From NCBI GenBank assembly GCA_965649115.1, contig CBFGJN010000059.1, positions 1 through 11,499 on the forward strand: 11,499 bases of DNA, given 5' to 3'. The notes beneath the pieces are model-generated. The model had not been told where the DNA came from. It was given only the letters and a program-made list of their open reading frames with translations, and searched no databases. Source of the DNA: a candidate division WOR-3 bacterium (GTDB lineage: Bacteria; Hydrothermota; Hydrothermia; LBFQ01; DSFT01). Below, piece after piece: positions 5-11,238 of the stretch. Each line of letters opens with the position of its first letter. Position 1 is the first letter of the stretch. A program made the translations under genes and the position numbers.

Positions 5-210
5 TGCCTTGTCCAATAATTCTAAAATTATTTATTTTACTATATTTTCCCACCCACCCTATAATTAAGCCTTCGGCTTATAAATACCCGTTTTTTGCCT
101 TTGGGGGGCGAAGCCCCCCCTAATAATCCCCCCAATAAATCAACAATTTCCTTAAAAATTTTATAAATTATTGATTATCAATCGCTTAACAATAATTATT
201 GGACAAAGCA
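5..210 (-). mobile_element. MITE/REP-like non-coding repeat element, copy 1 (complete, with terminal inverted repeats)
   Basis: TGCCTTGTCCAATAATT (5-21) and AATTATTGGACAAAGCA (194-210) form a 16/17 inverted repeat. Internal hairpins are TAAGCC-TTC-GGCTTA (66-80) and GGGGGGC-GAA-GCCCCCC (103-119). The reverse complement aligns collinearly with ~4049-4221. No ORF inside. Strand is given as the G-rich strand. Mobility is inferred, not shown. Confidence 0.7.
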
Positions 211-1947: not shown

Positions 1948-4019
1948 AGTTCAACGTTAAAAAATTTTTATGGGGTATTAAATGGGCATTTATAACATAT
2001 CTTGTAATTATTATCATTTCAATTCCTATTATAATTTATCTTTCAATTGGACTTCCATCATTAGAAGAAATTGAGAGGTACAAAGCACCAAATTCAACAA
2101 AAGTTTATGATATAAATGGTAAGTTAATTTATGAATTTCACGAAGAAAGAAGAGTTCCTATAAAAATTAAGGAGCTTCCAAAACATGTTGTTATGGCTTT
2201 TGTTCTTCTTGAAGATAGAAAATTCTATAATCATTGGGGTGTTGATATAGATAGAATTATAAAATCAGCGATAAAAAACATCCTCACTTTAAGTATAAAG
2301 GAGGGAGCAAGTACAATAACCCAACAATTGGCAAGAAATATGTTTTTAACGCAAGAAAGAACAATCACAAGAAAAATAAGAGAAATTTTACTTGCTATTA
2401 AAATTGAAAGAACATTTTCAAAAGAAGAAATTCTTGAAAGATATTTAAATCAAATTTACATGGGAGGTGGGTTATATGGCATTCAAAGTGCAGCTGAATA
2501 CTACTTTGGTAAAACTGCGAAAGATTTAAATCCATTAGAAGCGTCAATTTTAGCAGGAATTCCAAAAGATCCGAGCAGATATTCACCTGCTAAAAACTAC
2601 GAATTATCATTACAAAGAGGAAAATTTATATTAAAATTACTATATGATAATAAAATTATAAGCAAAGATGAATATGAAAAATTTAAAAATTACAAGCCTG
2701 AAATTGTTTATTTTAAAGCACCTTTAAGTTATGGAGGGATAGCACCTTACTTCATAGATGAAGTAAGGAAGTACGTGGTTTCAAAATATGGAGAATATTT
2801 TTTGTTTAGAGGTGGTGGAAAAATTTGGACAACACTTGATAGTAGAATTCAAGAAATATGTAATAGAATTGTTGATAGTATGCTTGATGTTTATGACAAA
2901 AAATTCCCTACAAAACCTAAATACAAGGATTATAATCCTAAAACAAAAAAGCCTCCTAAATATCTACAAGTTGCACTTGTTGCTATTGATAATAATACTG
3001 GATATGTATTGGCTCTCATAGGTGGAAGGAATTATTATCATAGTCAATTTAATAGGGCAACGCAAGCTTATAGGCAAGCGGGATCAGCATTTAAGGTTTT
3101 CACTTACGCATCTGCTATGGAAAAAGGTTTCAATGCCACTGATATTGTCTATGATTTACCAATATCTATAAAACTTCCTGATACTATTTGGCAACCTGAG
3201 AACTTTGATAGGGAATATCTTGGACCAATTCCAATATGGAAAGCAATTGCATTGTCAAAGAACTTAGCAACTGTTAGATTACTTTTGGAAATAGGACCAG
3301 CTTCTGCTAGTGAAATGGCAAAAAGACTTGGTATTGAAACCAGTGTTCCTCCCTATTATTCAGTAGCACTTGGTGCAATTGATGTTAGACCAATAGAGCT
3401 CATAAACGCTTTTAGCACTATTGCAAGTTATGGAAATAGAAAAAAACCTATATTTATTATTAAAATTGAAGATGTTAACGGTGTTATTTTGGAGGAAAAT
3501 AAACCTCAATCAACAATTGTTATGGATTCAATAACTGCTTATTTAACAATTAATTTACTAAGACATGTCGTTGATGCTGGAACTGCTATTGATGCAAGGT
3601 TAGTTTATAAATTTGAACATCCCGCAGCTGGTAAGACAGGAACTACTGATGATTATAGAGATGCATGGTTTATTGGATTTACCCCTGAAATAACATTAGG
3701 TGTGTGGTTTGGTTATGATAGTACAAGAACAATTTTTCCAAATGCTACGGGAACACAATTAGCAGTTCCTGTTTGGTCATTAATTATGAAAGAAATTTAC
3801 AAAGATAAACCAAAAAAAAATTTTTATATTCCTTATGGAGTTAAATTTGTGGAAGTTTGTAGAATTTCAGGTAAGCTTCCAACAAAAAACTGCCCAAGAA
3901 TATATGAACCTTTTAGAGAAGGTAAAGAACCGAAAGAATATTGTCCTATCCATACCTCTGCAAAAGAAATTTCAGATACAACAATTGAGAAGAACTTTTT
4001 GAAAGACTTTTTAAGATAA
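1944..4019 (+). CDS. mrcA: Class A penicillin-binding protein, PBP1A family (transglycosylase + transpeptidase)
   Basis: N-terminal TM anchor. GT51 motifs EDRKFYNHWGVD, GASTITQQLARN and RKIREILLA. Transpeptidase motifs SxxK (GSAFK), SxN (SKN) and KTG (GKTGTT). C-terminal Cys/His tail CRISG..CP..CPIH. ATGA overlap with the upstream gene. Confidence 0.95.
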   Translation: MKFNVKKFLWGIKWAFITYLVIIIISIPIIIYLSIGLPSLEEIERYKAPNSTKVYDINGKLIYEFHEERRVPIKIKELPKHVVMAFVLLEDRKFYNHWGVDIDRIIKSAIKNILTLSIKEGASTITQQLARNMFLTQERTITRKIREILLAIKIERTFSKEEILERYLNQIYMGGGLYGIQSAAEYYFGKTAKDLNPLEASILAGIPKDPSRYSPAKNYELSLQRGKFILKLLYDNKIISKDEYEKFKNYKPEIVYFKAPLSYGGIAPYFIDEVRKYVVSKYGEYFLFRGGGKIWTTLDSRIQEICNRIVDSMLDVYDKKFPTKPKYKDYNPKTKKPPKYLQVALVAIDNNTGYVLALIGGRNYYHSQFNRATQAYRQAGSAFKVFTYASAMEKGFNATDIVYDLPISIKLPDTIWQPENFDREYLGPIPIWKAIALSKNLATVRLLLEIGPASASEMAKRLGIETSVPPYYSVALGAIDVRPIELINAFSTIASYGNRKKPIFIIKIEDVNGVILEENKPQSTIVMDSITAYLTINLLRHVVDAGTAIDARLVYKFEHPAAGKTGTTDDYRDAWFIGFTPEITLGVWFGYDSTRTIFPNATGTQLAVPVWSLIMKEIYKDKPKKNFYIPYGVKFVEVCRISGKLPTKNCPRIYEPFREGKEPKEYCPIHTSAKEISDTTIEKNFLKDFLR

Positions 4020-4026
4020 GACCTAG

Positions 4027-4221
4027 AAATAATTATATTTTTGGACACAATTGATTATCAAAGACTTATTAAAAATTCATTAAAATGCTTGAAATCATAG
4101 GGGGAATTAATGGGGGCTTCGCCTCCATTGCCGAAATATGGGCAATTAGAGCCGAAGGCTCAATTATAGGGTGGGTGGGAAAAATATAAAAATAATTATA
4201 TTTTTAGAATTTTTGGACACA
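4027..4221 (+). mobile_element. MITE/REP-like repeat element, copy 2 (inverted relative to copy 1)
   Basis: 22-bp exact match AATTATAGGGTGGGTGGGAAAA (4162-4183 = revcomp of 45-66) and 12-bp GGGGGCTTCGCC (4112-4123 = revcomp of 107-118). Hairpins at 4109-4129 and 4149-4161. Ends in TTTTTGGACACA, similar to the copy 1 terminus. Confidence 0.75.
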
Positions 4222-4222
4222 T

Positions 4223-4252
4223 TAGACACATTTTAAAATTATCCTTTAAAAT
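4223..4252 (+). promoter_or_regulatory. Putative sigma70 promoter of the small lipoprotein gene (TAGACA-N18-TAAAAT)
   Basis: TAGACA at 4223-4228 and TAAAAT at 4247-4252, inside the TTAAAATTTTCAAA motif shared with the ahcY and fabD upstream regions. Confidence 0.4.
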
Positions 4253-4283: not shown

Positions 4284-4478
4284 ATGAGAAACCTTTTACT
4301 TGCCCTAAGCATAGCGCTAGCTCTTGGAGCATGCGGTGGTGGTCAAAAGGCAGAAGAACAGAAACCAGCTGAACAAACTCAACAACAAACTACAACTACT
4401 ACTGATACTACACAAAAGACTACTACTGATACTACTAAAAAGACAGAGCAAACCCAGACCTCTGGTGAGAAGAAGTAA
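4284..4478 (+). CDS. Small Thr/Gln-rich lipoprotein (64 aa, low complexity)
   Basis: Signal peptide with lipobox LGA|C, strong SD, polar disordered mature part ending in GEKK, and a downstream hairpin. Confidence 0.85.
   Translation: MRNLLLALSIALALGACGGGQKAEEQKPAEQTQQQTTTTTDTTQKTTTDTTKKTEQTQTSGEKK
4395..4442 (+). repeat. 24-bp in-frame tandem duplication (TTTDTTQK / TTTDTTKK)
   Basis: ACTACTACTGATACTACACAAAAG (4395-4418) versus ACTACTACTGATACTACTAAAAAG (4419-4442), 22/24 identical. Confidence 0.85.
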
Positions 4479-9224: not shown

Positions 9225-9240
9225 ACTTTGAAAATTTTAA
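9225..9240 (-). promoter_or_regulatory. Putative -10 box/leaderless promoter motif of ahcY
   Basis: Minus strand reads TTAAAATTTTCAAAGT-ATG. TAAAAT is 9 nt before the start and there is no SD. Confidence 0.55.
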
Positions 9241-9260
9241 GGCATATTTATAGGGTAGTT

Positions 9261-9351
9261 AGGCAAAATTGGGCTTTGAACAAGGCTTATTTTCAGGGCG
9301 GGTAGGAAAAATATATTAAAATATATGTTTTTGGAATTATTGGATACAGCA
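9261..9351 (+). repeat. Decayed partial copy 3 of the intergenic repeat element
   Basis: AGGCAAAATTGGG...AAGGCTTATTTTCAGGGCGGGTAGGAAAAATATATTAAAATA...GAATTATTGGATACAGCA is collinear with the minus strand of copy 1 (AGGCAAAAAACGGG...AAGGCTTAATTATAGGGTGGGTGGGAAAATATAGTAAAATA...GAATTATTGGACAAGGCA). Confidence 0.7.
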
Positions 9352-9398: not shown

Positions 9399-10280
9399 AT
9401 GAAAACTGCCTTTATGTTTCCCGGCCAAGGCTCACAGTATGTAGGAATGGGTAAAGAATTATTTGATAATTACGAAATAGCAAAGGAAGTTTTTAATAGA
9501 GTTAAAAGCGTTTTAGGAAAGGATTTTTTAGAATTAGTTTTTTATGGAAGTGAAGAAGATTTAAGGAAAACAGAAAATGCTCAACCTGCAATTTATTCAG
9601 TTTCAGTAGCATCATTAGAAGTAATAAAAGAAAAAAATTTATATAGTGCTGATATTTGTTTTGGTCATAGTCTTGGGGAATTTACTGCTTTATATTGTGC
9701 CAGTGTTTTTAGTTTTGAGTATGGACTTAAAATTACGCGAATAAGAGGAGAAATAATGTCAAAGGCAAGTAAAGGTTCTATGGCAGCAGTTATTGGATTA
9801 AGTGAAGAAAAACTAAATGAAGTTTTGAAAAAATATAAAACTTTGGTTATAGCTAATTATAATTCACCAGAACAACTTGTAATATCAGGTGATATAGAAG
9901 AAATAAAAAAAGCTATTGAAGAATTAAGAGGATTAGCAAAGAGGGTTATTGAATTAAATGTTTCAGGTGCTTTCCATTCCCCACTTATGGAAGAAGCAAG
10001 TATTGAATTCTCAAAGTACTTAAAAAAAGATGAGCTTAAAGAACCCAAAATTCCTGTTATAATGAACTCAACAGGAGAAATTGCTTATAATTTAGACCAA
10101 ATTTATAATGCATTATTAAAACAATTAAGAAGTTCAGTTTTATTTACAAAAATGGTAAATAATGCTTATAATTATGGAGTTAGAAAATTTGTAGAAATTG
10201 GACCTTCAAAAGTTTTATCAGGTCTTGTAAAAAGAATAATAAAAGATGAAAACATTGAGATATTTAATTTTGGTTCTTAG
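9399..10280 (+). CDS. fabD: Malonyl-CoA:ACP transacylase
   Basis: FPGQGSQ, TENAQPAI, GHSLGE (catalytic Ser), ANYNSPEQLVISG, VSGAFHS and EIGP motifs. Confidence 0.97.
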   Translation: MKTAFMFPGQGSQYVGMGKELFDNYEIAKEVFNRVKSVLGKDFLELVFYGSEEDLRKTENAQPAIYSVSVASLEVIKEKNLYSADICFGHSLGEFTALYCASVFSFEYGLKITRIRGEIMSKASKGSMAAVIGLSEEKLNEVLKKYKTLVIANYNSPEQLVISGDIEEIKKAIEELRGLAKRVIELNVSGAFHSPLMEEASIEFSKYLKKDELKEPKIPVIMNSTGEIAYNLDQIYNALLKQLRSSVLFTKMVNNAYNYGVRKFVEIGPSKVLSGLVKRIIKDENIEIFNFGS

Positions 10281-11238
10281 TATTCTTTCTTGTAAGAAAG
10301 ATATTCAAGTTCCTGAAATTGTTCAAGGAAGGAAAATTTTATTAGCATTTCAAAATTCAAAAAAAGTTCATTATTTTTTGGTTGATAGTCAAAAATTGTT
10401 CTTTCTATTTAATAGTGGAGATGTTCCTAATGCATTCATTAAAATAAATGAAAATGAGTTTTATTTAATAAATTCGGGAGGTTTTACTGGCTCACCATCA
10501 ATTCAAAAATTTAATTTTTTAAATGGTGAGGTTATAACATATCCCTTAAACAATAATTATAATCCAATGTTTGGAGTTTATTTTAACGGAAAATTGTTCA
10601 TTACAGATTTTGGAAAGTCCTATTCTGAAAATGTTTTAGTATTTAAAGATGGTCAAATTATAGATAGTGTAAAGACATCAAACAGACCAATTGATATTCA
10701 AATTGTAGATAGTTTTCTCGTTGTTTCTACAAACGGGATGAAGTCTGACTATAGTTATGACACAATTTCAAAAATTTTCAAAATTTCTATAAATTCTCTT
10801 AAAAAATTGGATAGTTTAAACTTGTTTTTAGGGGCATCAAATATCGGTATTTATAAAGATACAATTTTCGTAATATCAACGGGCATTTACAATCAAACGC
10901 CTTCAAGAATTTACAAAATTAACAAGAACTTTCAAAAATTAGATAGTTTAACTATATCAAAAAATATATATTCTTTTGGTTTAAATAGTGATTATTTAAT
11001 TCTTGGTAGTTGGGACGGATGGATCTATGTTCTAAACCATAATTTACAAAAGCTTGATAGTTTAAAAATTTCAAATAGTATAAACTTTATTTGTTCGTTT
11101 GAGGATAAATTTTTCATTACTACAAATGGATTTTCTTATAGTCCAAATTATTTAATTATTTTTAAACCTTTTTTAAAAGCGGATAGTATAAAACTATCAG
11201 ATGAGGATTTAGGTATTGGTCCTTGTCTTGTGTTCTAA
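10246..11238 (+). CDS. Lipoprotein with probable beta-propeller fold (YncE-like)
   Basis: Signal peptide with lipobox ILS|C. Roughly 40-45 aa beta-rich repeats ending in (K)LDSL/IDSV/ADSI. Overlaps the fabD 3' end by 35 nt. Family assignment is tentative. Confidence 0.65.
   Translation: MKTLRYLILVLSILSCKKDIQVPEIVQGRKILLAFQNSKKVHYFLVDSQKLFFLFNSGDVPNAFIKINENEFYLINSGGFTGSPSIQKFNFLNGEVITYPLNNNYNPMFGVYFNGKLFITDFGKSYSENVLVFKDGQIIDSVKTSNRPIDIQIVDSFLVVSTNGMKSDYSYDTISKIFKISINSLKKLDSLNLFLGASNIGIYKDTIFVISTGIYNQTPSRIYKINKNFQKLDSLTISKNIYSFGLNSDYLILGSWDGWIYVLNHNLQKLDSLKISNSINFICSFEDKFFITTNGFSYSPNYLIIFKPFLKADSIKLSDEDLGIGPCLVF

Follow-up and report, generated by a model that had tools for sequence, protein, structure and literature searches.

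The DNA considered here, the window, is a stretch of 11,499 nucleotides that makes up one whole contig (C59; GenBank CBFGJN010000059.1) of the genome assembly of an uncultured hot-spring bacterium of candidate division WOR-3 (GCA_965649115.1, which we label G000; 99 contigs, 1.85 Mb, 27.6% GC, and 94.5% complete). Near its left end, and again between the gene for a class A penicillin-binding protein (PBP1a) and a small open reading frame (ORF) that is lipoprotein-like, the window contains a pair of short GC-rich hairpins, which we call hairpin A and hairpin B. The two hairpin regions are inverted copies of one repeat, and this repeat is a miniature inverted-repeat transposable element (MITE) that is abundant in this genome. 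The hairpins are probably DNA palindromes that are carried by the MITE and are kept symmetric by template switching, by selection, or by both, without an RNA gene or a hairpin-cutting site.

The features of the MITE copies are listed below by their positions in the window.

5..210, plus strand: MITE copy 1, full length, with the C-rich reference strand on the plus strand (nhmmer match 3-213, E = 5.8e-63)
~5-21 and ~194-210: left and right inverted repeats of copy 1; the contig begins within the left flank
50..60, plus strand: CCCACCCACCC block of copy 1 (GGGTGGGTGGG on the opposite strand), conserved and unpaired
66..80, plus strand: hairpin B of copy 1, TAAGCC-TTC-GGCTTA, read directly; GAA is on the minus strand
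103..119, plus strand: hairpin A of copy 1, GGGGGGC-GAA-GCCCCCC, read directly
171..181, plus strand: internal palindrome TTGATTATCAA, conserved, read directly
~4047..4224, minus strand: MITE copy 2, limits approximate (nhmmer match 4221-4047, E = 1.5e-35)
4109..4129, plus strand: hairpin A of copy 2, AATGGGGGC-TTC-GCCTCCATT, with one G.T on the plus strand
4127..4146, plus strand: third hairpin, in copy 2 only, ATTGCC-GAAATATG-GGCAAT, between hairpins A and B and in the minimum-energy fold
4149..4161, plus strand: hairpin B of copy 2, GAGCC-GAA-GGCTC, whose outer pair is the G:C variant
4169..4179, plus strand: GGGTGGGTGGG block of copy 2, read directly
9239-9269 and 9282-9351, minus strand: two truncated left-end MITE fragments (nhmmer match 9351-9265, E = 5.2e-12)

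A first-pass annotation of the window had picked out the hairpins of both copies, and its four readings and their coordinates are correct. The outer pair of hairpin B is indeed A:T in copy 1 and G:C in copy 2, and hairpin A of copy 2 does contain the single G.T that was reported. Both of the copies that it described are real, but they are not isolated: they belong to a repeat family with 690 nhmmer matches in the genome.

The minimum-energy fold of copy 1 contains both hairpins on either strand and with either DNA or RNA parameters. For copy 2, a longer alternative fold is possible, which includes the third hairpin at 4127-4146; judging from the family alignment, this third hairpin is not general across the MITE family. 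Compared to dinucleotide shuffles, the z-scores of the folding energies were -2.0, -1.1, -2.7, and -3.5 with DNA parameters and -1.5, +0.55, -1.4, and -2.9 with RNA parameters. Folding energy alone barely beats chance, and by itself it argues only weakly for structure.

The repeat is a mobile element

An iterated nhmmer search found 690 copies and fragments of the repeat, which together cover 97,222 bases (5.3% of the genome). Of these matches, 240 are near full length (~205 bp). Both the consensus and the individual copies begin with TG and end with CA, and they carry imperfect terminal inverted repeats of ~17 bp (consensus TGCyTTGTCCAATAATT ... AATTATTGGACAAAGCA). Among the 187 full copies with both flanks, 80 are bordered by an exact 9-bp target duplication and 10 more by a duplication of 8 bp; none of the duplications is longer. 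As a control, we paired the left and right flanks of different copies, which gave 0.7 such duplications. Copies are often stacked head to tail with the duplicated 9-mer in common, and the same 9-mer is duplicated anew. There is no ORF of at least 60 amino acids that lies wholly within 5-210 or 4047-4224.

The element at ~4047-4224 is absent from the orthologous site in four genomes of the same genus (G001-G004), where the matches to its two flanks abut. The flanking genes (PBP1a and the small lipoprotein-like ORF) are conserved in these genomes at 70-90% DNA identity. Where G000 carries the element, the empty site in G002 reads GACACCTTT. Furthermore, run X18, from an RNA library, includes a contig of 1205 nt in which position 4000 of the window is followed, after 19 letters (AAGAGGGTTATTTAGATAG), by position 4221; these letters also occur at the empty site of G002. 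This contig shows that a relative with an empty site exists in nature; it is not evidence of transcription. Copy 2 is a lineage-specific insertion, in the opposite orientation to copy 1. Given the inverted repeats, the duplication of fixed length, the small size, the lack of coding sequence, the many copies, and the empty orthologous sites, the repeat is a MITE.

Copy 2 is incomplete: it lacks ~27 nt of the right end, including the right inverted repeat, and its left end faces the promoter at 4244-4252 (see below). The fragments at 9239-9351 lack hairpin A and half of hairpin B.

In a search of 41 genomes, the repeat was frequent in just two, G000 (31 scored matches) and G002 (33). There were 3 matches in G003 and a single marginal match in each of G004 and G014, and neither G001 nor the other families searched gave any. 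Similarly, when we scanned genome contigs with the pattern of the right end, one related metagenome-assembled genome alone had many matches, among the matches listed.

Common polymorphisms within the element are nearly unlinked. For 65 columns in which a second allele is common, compared across 278 copies, the median r2 was 0.045 for columns that are 4-8 nt apart, 0.017 at 9-15 nt, and 0.006 beyond 60 nt. This implies either that the copies are mosaics via frequent exchange between copies or that mutations have recurred at the same sites.

Insertion beside promoters

Nearly all of the left flanks carry ATTTTAAAG at a fixed distance from the element; on the other strand, this motif reads CTTTAAAATTT. 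It occurs 573 times in the genome, as compared to ~20 occurrences expected from base composition. In 361 cases, TAAAAT is followed after 6-11 nt by the start codon of an ORF, and the motif is also found directly before tRNA genes. Because of this spacing and of the position before tRNA genes, we read the motif as the -10 element of the main promoter. Judging from these positions, the promoter seems to be of the extended -10 type, and most messages seem to be leaderless. Two occurrences of the motif in the window are relevant here.

4244..4252, plus strand: host promoter motif CTTTAAAAT, for the gene that starts at 4284; the MITE family inserts beside this motif
287-295: the same promoter motif, before an ORF of 546 amino acids

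At 135 of the 573 occurrences of the motif, the left end of the MITE is found 18-19 nt upstream, and at another 30 it is found 11-12 nt upstream; the element inserts in one orientation relative to the motif. In tandem gene pairs, the G-rich strand of the MITE is the sense strand for 234 of 249 MITE matches.

We made a few further observations about insertion sites. At 247-268 there is a short remnant (..TTTGGACACA) that resembles the left end of the MITE and is absent from the nhmmer matches; its distance to the downstream promoter motif at 287-295 (the one before the 546-aa ORF) is ~18-21 nt, and its position and orientation are canonical. Also, 42 of the 90 "convergent" intergenic regions hold MITE matches, which would be unexpected for an element that purely seeks promoters. 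The crude gene set behind this survey of intergenic regions (ORFs of at least 100 amino acids) may miss small genes or RNA genes that have promoters.

At C11:31359-32784 (1.4 kb), a partial MITE, two genes, and a full MITE follow each other, and the same 9-mer (TATATCTTT) is present on both sides. This unit sits next to a promoter motif. The cargo genes are on the minus strand with a promoter motif of their own, and they encode proteins of 65 and 242 amino acids, neither of which has a match in Pfam. The unit looks like a composite transposon that is bounded by MITEs.

The hairpins are not required for transposition. We identified 84 units with facing repeats and an exact 9-bp duplication, and 39 of these do not have an intact hairpin A, while 10 do not have an intact hairpin B. 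Insertions with fresh duplications are often without hairpin A: an intact copy of it is lacking in 20 of the 28 duplicated units of 150-189 bp. Recurrent deletion forms are also visible in the family alignment. Because units without hairpins and the 1.4-kb composite have moved as well, only the ends of the element matter for moving, as expected of a DDE-type enzyme.

The arms of the hairpins are coupled

The first-pass annotation had proposed, from differences between two copies, that selection acts on the folded structure. We therefore aligned 146 copies with MAFFT (144 of the 421 copies that span both hairpins, plus the two copies in the window). The coupling of the paired positions goes well beyond what is seen in shuffles: 89.3% of stem cells are paired as compared to 82.8% in shuffles, 74 cells are changed on both sides as compared to 22.6 expected, and the covariation score is 0.125 as compared to 0.060, with none of 500 shuffles as high. 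In controls with slid stems, covariation was always far below that of the actual stems.

Most of this signal comes from one pair in hairpin B, which is C:G in 87 copies, G:C in 37, and unpaired in 8. The two sides of this pair are 6 nt apart and have r2 = 0.93, which is the highest value among the 88 column pairs at 4-8 nt. Against every other column, including the nearest polymorphic neighbors, the state of this pair gives r2 of at most 0.19. Because the r2 of 0.93 stands against collapsed linkage elsewhere in the element, the arms of hairpin B are specifically coupled, and this is not mere subfamily descent. On a tree of 147 copies that was built without the hairpins, the C:G/G:C state requires 34 changes (with shuffled labels, the average was 41.2 and the minimum was 35). 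Of these copies, ~5 are mismatched at this pair, as compared to 50 with the swapped form. Counts of events on a tree are not meaningful for mosaic copies, and the result agrees with a state that is unlinked from the rest of the element.

The outer pair that had been flagged as a compensatory change is genuine, but it is a minor variant within the family. Over all matches, this pair is A:T in 364 copies, G:C in 10, G.T in 4, A.C in 4, and A.A in 1, so that the G:C form accounts for 10 of 383 intact copies of hairpin B. (The corresponding counts in the 146-copy alignment are 128 for A:T, 5 for G:C, and 2 for G.T.) The stems of hairpin A hardly vary in the family alignment.

We also compared how fast the parts of the element diverge, using 117 pairs of nearest neighbors with at most 12% divergence. 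The differences per site were as follows.

Linkers: 0.072-0.078
Loop of hairpin A: 0.22
Loop of hairpin B: 0.04-0.10
Stem of hairpin A: 0.013
Stem of hairpin B, A/T sites: 0.004
Stem of hairpin B, G/C sites: 0.051, mostly from the pair that swaps between C:G and G:C
CCCACCCACCC block, C positions: 0.009
CCCACCCACCC block, two A positions: 0.097
CCC in the spacer: 0.011
Palindrome TTGATTATCAA: 0.014-0.029

The stems and the GC blocks are 5-8 fold better conserved than the AT-rich linkers, and the stems do not mutate as freely as the loops and flanks do; they are far less variable. As for selection on the folded structure, there is a constraint on the fold or, at a minimum, on its dyad symmetry, but selection is not the sole route to coupled arms.

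Strand symmetry and loop inversion

If the hairpins functioned as RNA, then G-U-like pairs should be tolerated on one strand, and the first-pass annotation had suggested that an RNA structure, or a functional strand, might be recognized in this way. Over both stems in 240 copies, we counted 35 G.T or T.G mismatches and 37 A.C or C.A mismatches. Neither strand preferentially tolerates G-U-like pairs, so these counts do not point to an RNA strand. When the whole window was scanned against Rfam by E-value, there was nothing at the hairpins (there was one chance-level match to a snoRNA at 2446-2552). Together with the flipping of the loop of hairpin A, which we describe next, these results do not support a functional RNA strand.

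Among 211 intact copies of hairpin A, the loop is found in both orientations: TTC in 48 copies and GAA in 31, TTT in 29 and AAA in 17, TCC in 11 and GGA in 13, and TCT in 7 and AGA in 40. In total there are 95 pyrimidine loops and 101 purine loops, so there is no preferred orientation. Loop positions 1 and 3 are coupled (r2 = 0.94). Furthermore, we examined 10 clusters whose copies share at least 96% identity when the loop is left aside. In these clusters, 12 of 30 loop positions vary, as compared to 77 of 2080 other columns (a ~10-fold higher variability), and TTT and AAA loops co-occur in one of them. When a loop becomes its own reverse complement and the rest of the element stays identical, this is an inversion between the arms, which is an event at the level of DNA. 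The set of loops that we observed (T or C after the first T, plus the complements) would fit C-to-T transitions in an exposed loop.

The loop of hairpin B behaves differently. On the C-rich strand of 364 intact copies, it is TTC in 259, TTT in 41, and TAC in 31; just 13 copies have a purine loop and none has GAA. The proposed conservation of C-GAA-G holds for hairpin B, where 259 of 364 copies read TTC on the C-rich strand, but it does not hold for hairpin A, where GAA and TTC together make up 79 of 211 loops.

How the palindromes may be maintained

Taken together, we propose that the hairpins are internal, GC-rich palindromes of a non-autonomous transposon of the cut-and-paste type. Such palindromes could extrude as DNA hairpins or cruciforms, or they could act as templates within a strand during replication. 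Template switching from arm to arm would then copy a change in one arm into the other arm and would flip the loop. Template switching between the arms of a palindrome can fix the pairing of the stem and can invert the loop (PMC8794818), and the flips of the hairpin A loop show that such DNA-level events do occur in this MITE family. Near-perfect stems could be maintained in this way without an RNA product or an enzyme specific to the hairpins. Descent from a few source elements may contribute to the symmetry of the stems. Selection on the GC-rich blocks as a whole probably contributes too, because the unpaired C-tracts are as conserved as the stems.

Several points weigh against this explanation. 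First, the unpaired GC blocks are conserved like the stems (CCCACCCACCC at 0.009 and CCC at 0.011 differences per site), and therefore the constraint is not specific to pairing. The mechanics of palindromes cannot account for conserved blocks that are unpaired, which implies some selection. (The rates between nearest neighbors mix differences among source elements with decay after insertion, and the AT-rich linkers are perhaps partly misaligned.) Second, the loop of hairpin B almost never flips, for which a strand-specific constraint and a short stem are equally good explanations. Third, "intact hairpin" was defined by a strict pattern, and some of the 39 duplicated units without hairpin A are decayed rather than deletion forms. 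Fourth, template switching is an inferred cause. Finally, we did not find a transposase with matching ends.

Alternative explanations

As the main alternative, the hairpins might instead be selected at the level of the transcript, as a terminator, an insulator, or a stabilizer of 3' ends that lies just upstream of the next promoter. Read as RNA, the sense (G-rich) strand would present hairpin A, then hairpin B with its GAA loop and a short run of T, and then GGGTGGGTGGG. The orientation of the MITE between tandem genes is as this idea requires, with the G-rich strand in the sense direction in 234 of 249 matches, but an insertion that is oriented and targeted to promoters already explains this bias. 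The nearly fixed orientation of the hairpin B loop is also in its favor, as are the 5-8 fold better conservation of the stems and GC blocks, the specific coupling of paired positions, and the conserved, unpaired G-tracts. On the other hand, G.T and A.C mismatches are symmetric, the loop of hairpin A has no preferred strand, and many duplicated insertions are without hairpin A. Stable stem-loops are common in the transcripts of MITEs, and a review describes MITEs that resemble terminators (SPRITE; PMC10969869). In the empty site of G002, there is no hairpin between the stop codon of PBP1a and the next promoter. When we scanned both strands of the window with a terminator consensus, we found 3 sites, and neither hairpin was among them: the tail is too poor in T, with just 3-4 T in the 8 nucleotides that follow hairpin B on the G-rich strand. 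The RNA-library runs cover small shares of the window, and they do so as contigs, which cannot show the ends of transcripts. In X18, the coverage over 4098-4211 is indistinguishable from another copy of the repeat or from carry-over of DNA, and the gap at 4041-4097 is uninformative. Overall, we consider a role in transcripts to be unlikely.

A related idea, which we rate as rather improbable, is that the GC-rich blocks are a single module under strand-specific selection, namely a G-quadruplex with a hairpin in its long loop, beside hairpin A. On the G-rich strand, which is the sense strand of the genes, the parts of this module could be a tract of GGG, hairpin B (whose GAA loop is fixed), and GGGTGGGTGGG. 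The C positions of CCCACCCACCC (family columns 46-56) are ~10-fold more conserved than its two single A positions, which is compatible with a quadruplex; the fixed orientation of the hairpin B loop and the specific coupling of paired positions are compatible with such a module as well. If this idea were true, then the MITE would deliver a ready-made transcription barrier or insulator upstream of about a quarter of promoters, and the host would keep the MITE. As a side observation, the pattern of CCCACCCACCC/GGGTGGGTGGG is as expected for the G-tracts and loops of a quadruplex, and a fourth GGG is 27 nt away, with hairpin B in between.

Another alternative is that the palindromes are double-stranded sites for a dimeric protein (the transposase at an accessory site, or a nucleoid or regulatory protein of the host) and that selection keeps the dyad. 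Symmetric changes in both half-sites would preserve the dyad, the same element contains a second conserved palindrome (TTGATTATCAA) as well as conserved C-tracts, and sites for IHF within Correia elements are documented in the review cited above (PMC10969869). However, a protein that reads bases is not likely to accept both C:G and G:C at a position that it contacts, and these two forms split the copies 30% to 70%. Also, elements that lack hairpin A still transpose, and no candidate protein was identified. This makes a protein-binding site quite improbable.

Finally, the first-pass annotation had given an HUH nuclease as an example of what might recognize the hairpins. Single-strand (Y1) transposition of this kind, as in derivatives of IS200/IS605 or REP/RAYT, is hardly credible here: stable GC-rich hairpins with C-GAA-G loops are present, but HUH elements make no target duplications, and ours has a sharp one of 9 bp in addition to terminal inverted repeats; the hairpins are internal instead of subterminal; derivatives without hairpins still carry fresh duplications; and there was no match to Y1_Tnp (PF01797) in the 94.5%-complete genome, though control genomes did match.

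The search for a transposase

A non-autonomous MITE would be moved by the transposase of a cognate autonomous element. We searched for the DDE transposase domain PF01609 (DDE_Tnp_1) and found no matches in G000 or in any of the 4 other genomes of the genus, which are incomplete; matches in other genera are without similar ends. For PF13737 (DDE_Tnp_1_5), there were likewise no matches in the genomes of the genus, which are incomplete. Elements of the ISLre2 and ISKra4 groups also make 9-bp duplications. Their transposase models (NF033529 for ISLre2 and NF033572 for ISKra4) had no matches in 13 genomes, although the control for NF033529 matched in no genome either. The duplication made by the MITE fits the IS903 group of the IS5 family, and a 9-bp duplication is made by IS903B (PMC13618097).

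We also looked for the transposase by position instead of by homology. In G000, no ORF of 200-600 amino acids is flanked by the inverted repeats together with a 9-bp duplication, and the long pairs of facing ends enclose ordinary genes that are unrelated to each other. In genome contigs from other lineages, we found single matches to the right end and no paired end, among the matches listed. A scan of viral contigs gave 46 single matches, and none of these fit the MITE model. (Recurrent spacings of 726 and 1624 nt in the viral contigs are due to related phage contigs and not to an insertion sequence.)

We considered proteins with multiple copies in the genome as candidate transposases and rejected them: one contains DUF3782 and PDDEXK_10, and by eye, the others are not transposase-like. 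The former is encoded at C4:53074-54030 and has paralogs on C28 and C32; these proteins have long coiled-coil repeats followed by DUF3782 and the PDDEXK_10 nuclease domain. There is also a family of short proteins (157 amino acids) with at least 6 copies, on C22, C13, C61, C50, C71, and C7.

Neighboring genes

The small ORF at 4284-4478, just downstream of copy 2, encodes a Thr/Gln-rich, lipoprotein-like protein. In one RNA-library run from a hot spring, the summed depth of contigs over this ORF is up to ~35,000, as compared to 63 for PBP1a; such depth is a poor measure of expression. The ORFs at 307-1947 (546 amino acids) and 10246-11238 (330 amino acids) have no match in Pfam at E = 0.001.

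Implications

The combination of flipped loops with strand-symmetric mismatches points to the maintenance of palindromes at the level of DNA. More generally, our results call for caution: in palindromic repeats with many copies, neither compensatory changes nor significant covariation prove, by themselves, that there is an RNA or a site for an enzyme. The hundreds of nearly unlinked copies are a natural data set for the rates of arm conversion and of loop inversion in a thermophile. A MITE that seeks promoters and makes up 5% of a small genome is of more interest, as a whole element, than its hairpins are.

Comparison to known systems

When we searched the literature by the names of the lineage, no title among the matches listed was about mobile elements; no search was aimed at this family. 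Several known systems share individual properties with it.

The extra stability of DNA mini-hairpins of the C-GAA-G type has been published (PMC13037366). The heptamer d(GCGAAGC) is contained in hairpin A of copy 1, and hairpin B likewise shows C-GAA-G, on its G-rich strand. Unlike in the mini-hairpin, the GAA loop of hairpin A is not conserved (31 GAA and 48 TTC of 211).

The behavior of the palindromes resembles that of hairpins that mutate by template switching, as described by Monttinen and Loytynoja 2022 (PMC8794818): the arms change together, the loops invert, and the stems stay perfect with no need for stepwise compensation. That paper concerns rRNA and other RNA genes on species trees, while our case concerns paralogous copies of mobile DNA, with the two loop orientations at ~1:1.

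As a mobile element, the family can be compared to MITEAba12 of Acinetobacter, a bacterial MITE that derives from an insertion sequence with 9-bp duplications (ISAba12; PMC6382973). Both are non-coding and AT-rich, both have 9-bp duplications, many copies, and subgroups that arose by deletion, both may form composite transposons, and both have short terminal inverted repeats (16 bp in MITEAba12 and ~17 bp here). In contrast, MITEAba12 is 113 bp long while our element is ~205 bp, with ~690 copies and fragments in one 1.85-Mb genome. Our element also has perfect GC-rich palindromes, and no parent element was found in the same genome. Furthermore, its target is defined by more than AT-rich DNA: both the distance and the orientation to a promoter motif are fixed.

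Insertion at promoters has a precedent in the TnGBS, ISLre2, and ISKra4 elements, whose insertions lie 15-17 bp upstream of the -35 box (PMC3942029). The likeness lies in insertion that is oriented and close to a promoter; it concerns the targeting of the whole element and not the hairpins. Unlike these elements, our MITE inserts 18-19 nt before the extended -10 motif, which is roughly the position of a -35 box, and no ISLre2 or ISKra4 transposase was found in the 13 genomes that we searched.

Lastly, Correia, SPRITE, and other structured MITEs are also small mobile repeats that lie next to genes and that carry stable stem-loops and regulatory motifs (PMC10969869). In Correia elements, the terminal repeats pair to form the stem, which RNase III cleaves; in our family, there are short, internal, GC-rich palindromes, which are known from DNA alone. 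Bacterial MITEs with internal stem-loops, and palindromes that behave in this way, are already known, and this family is a new member.

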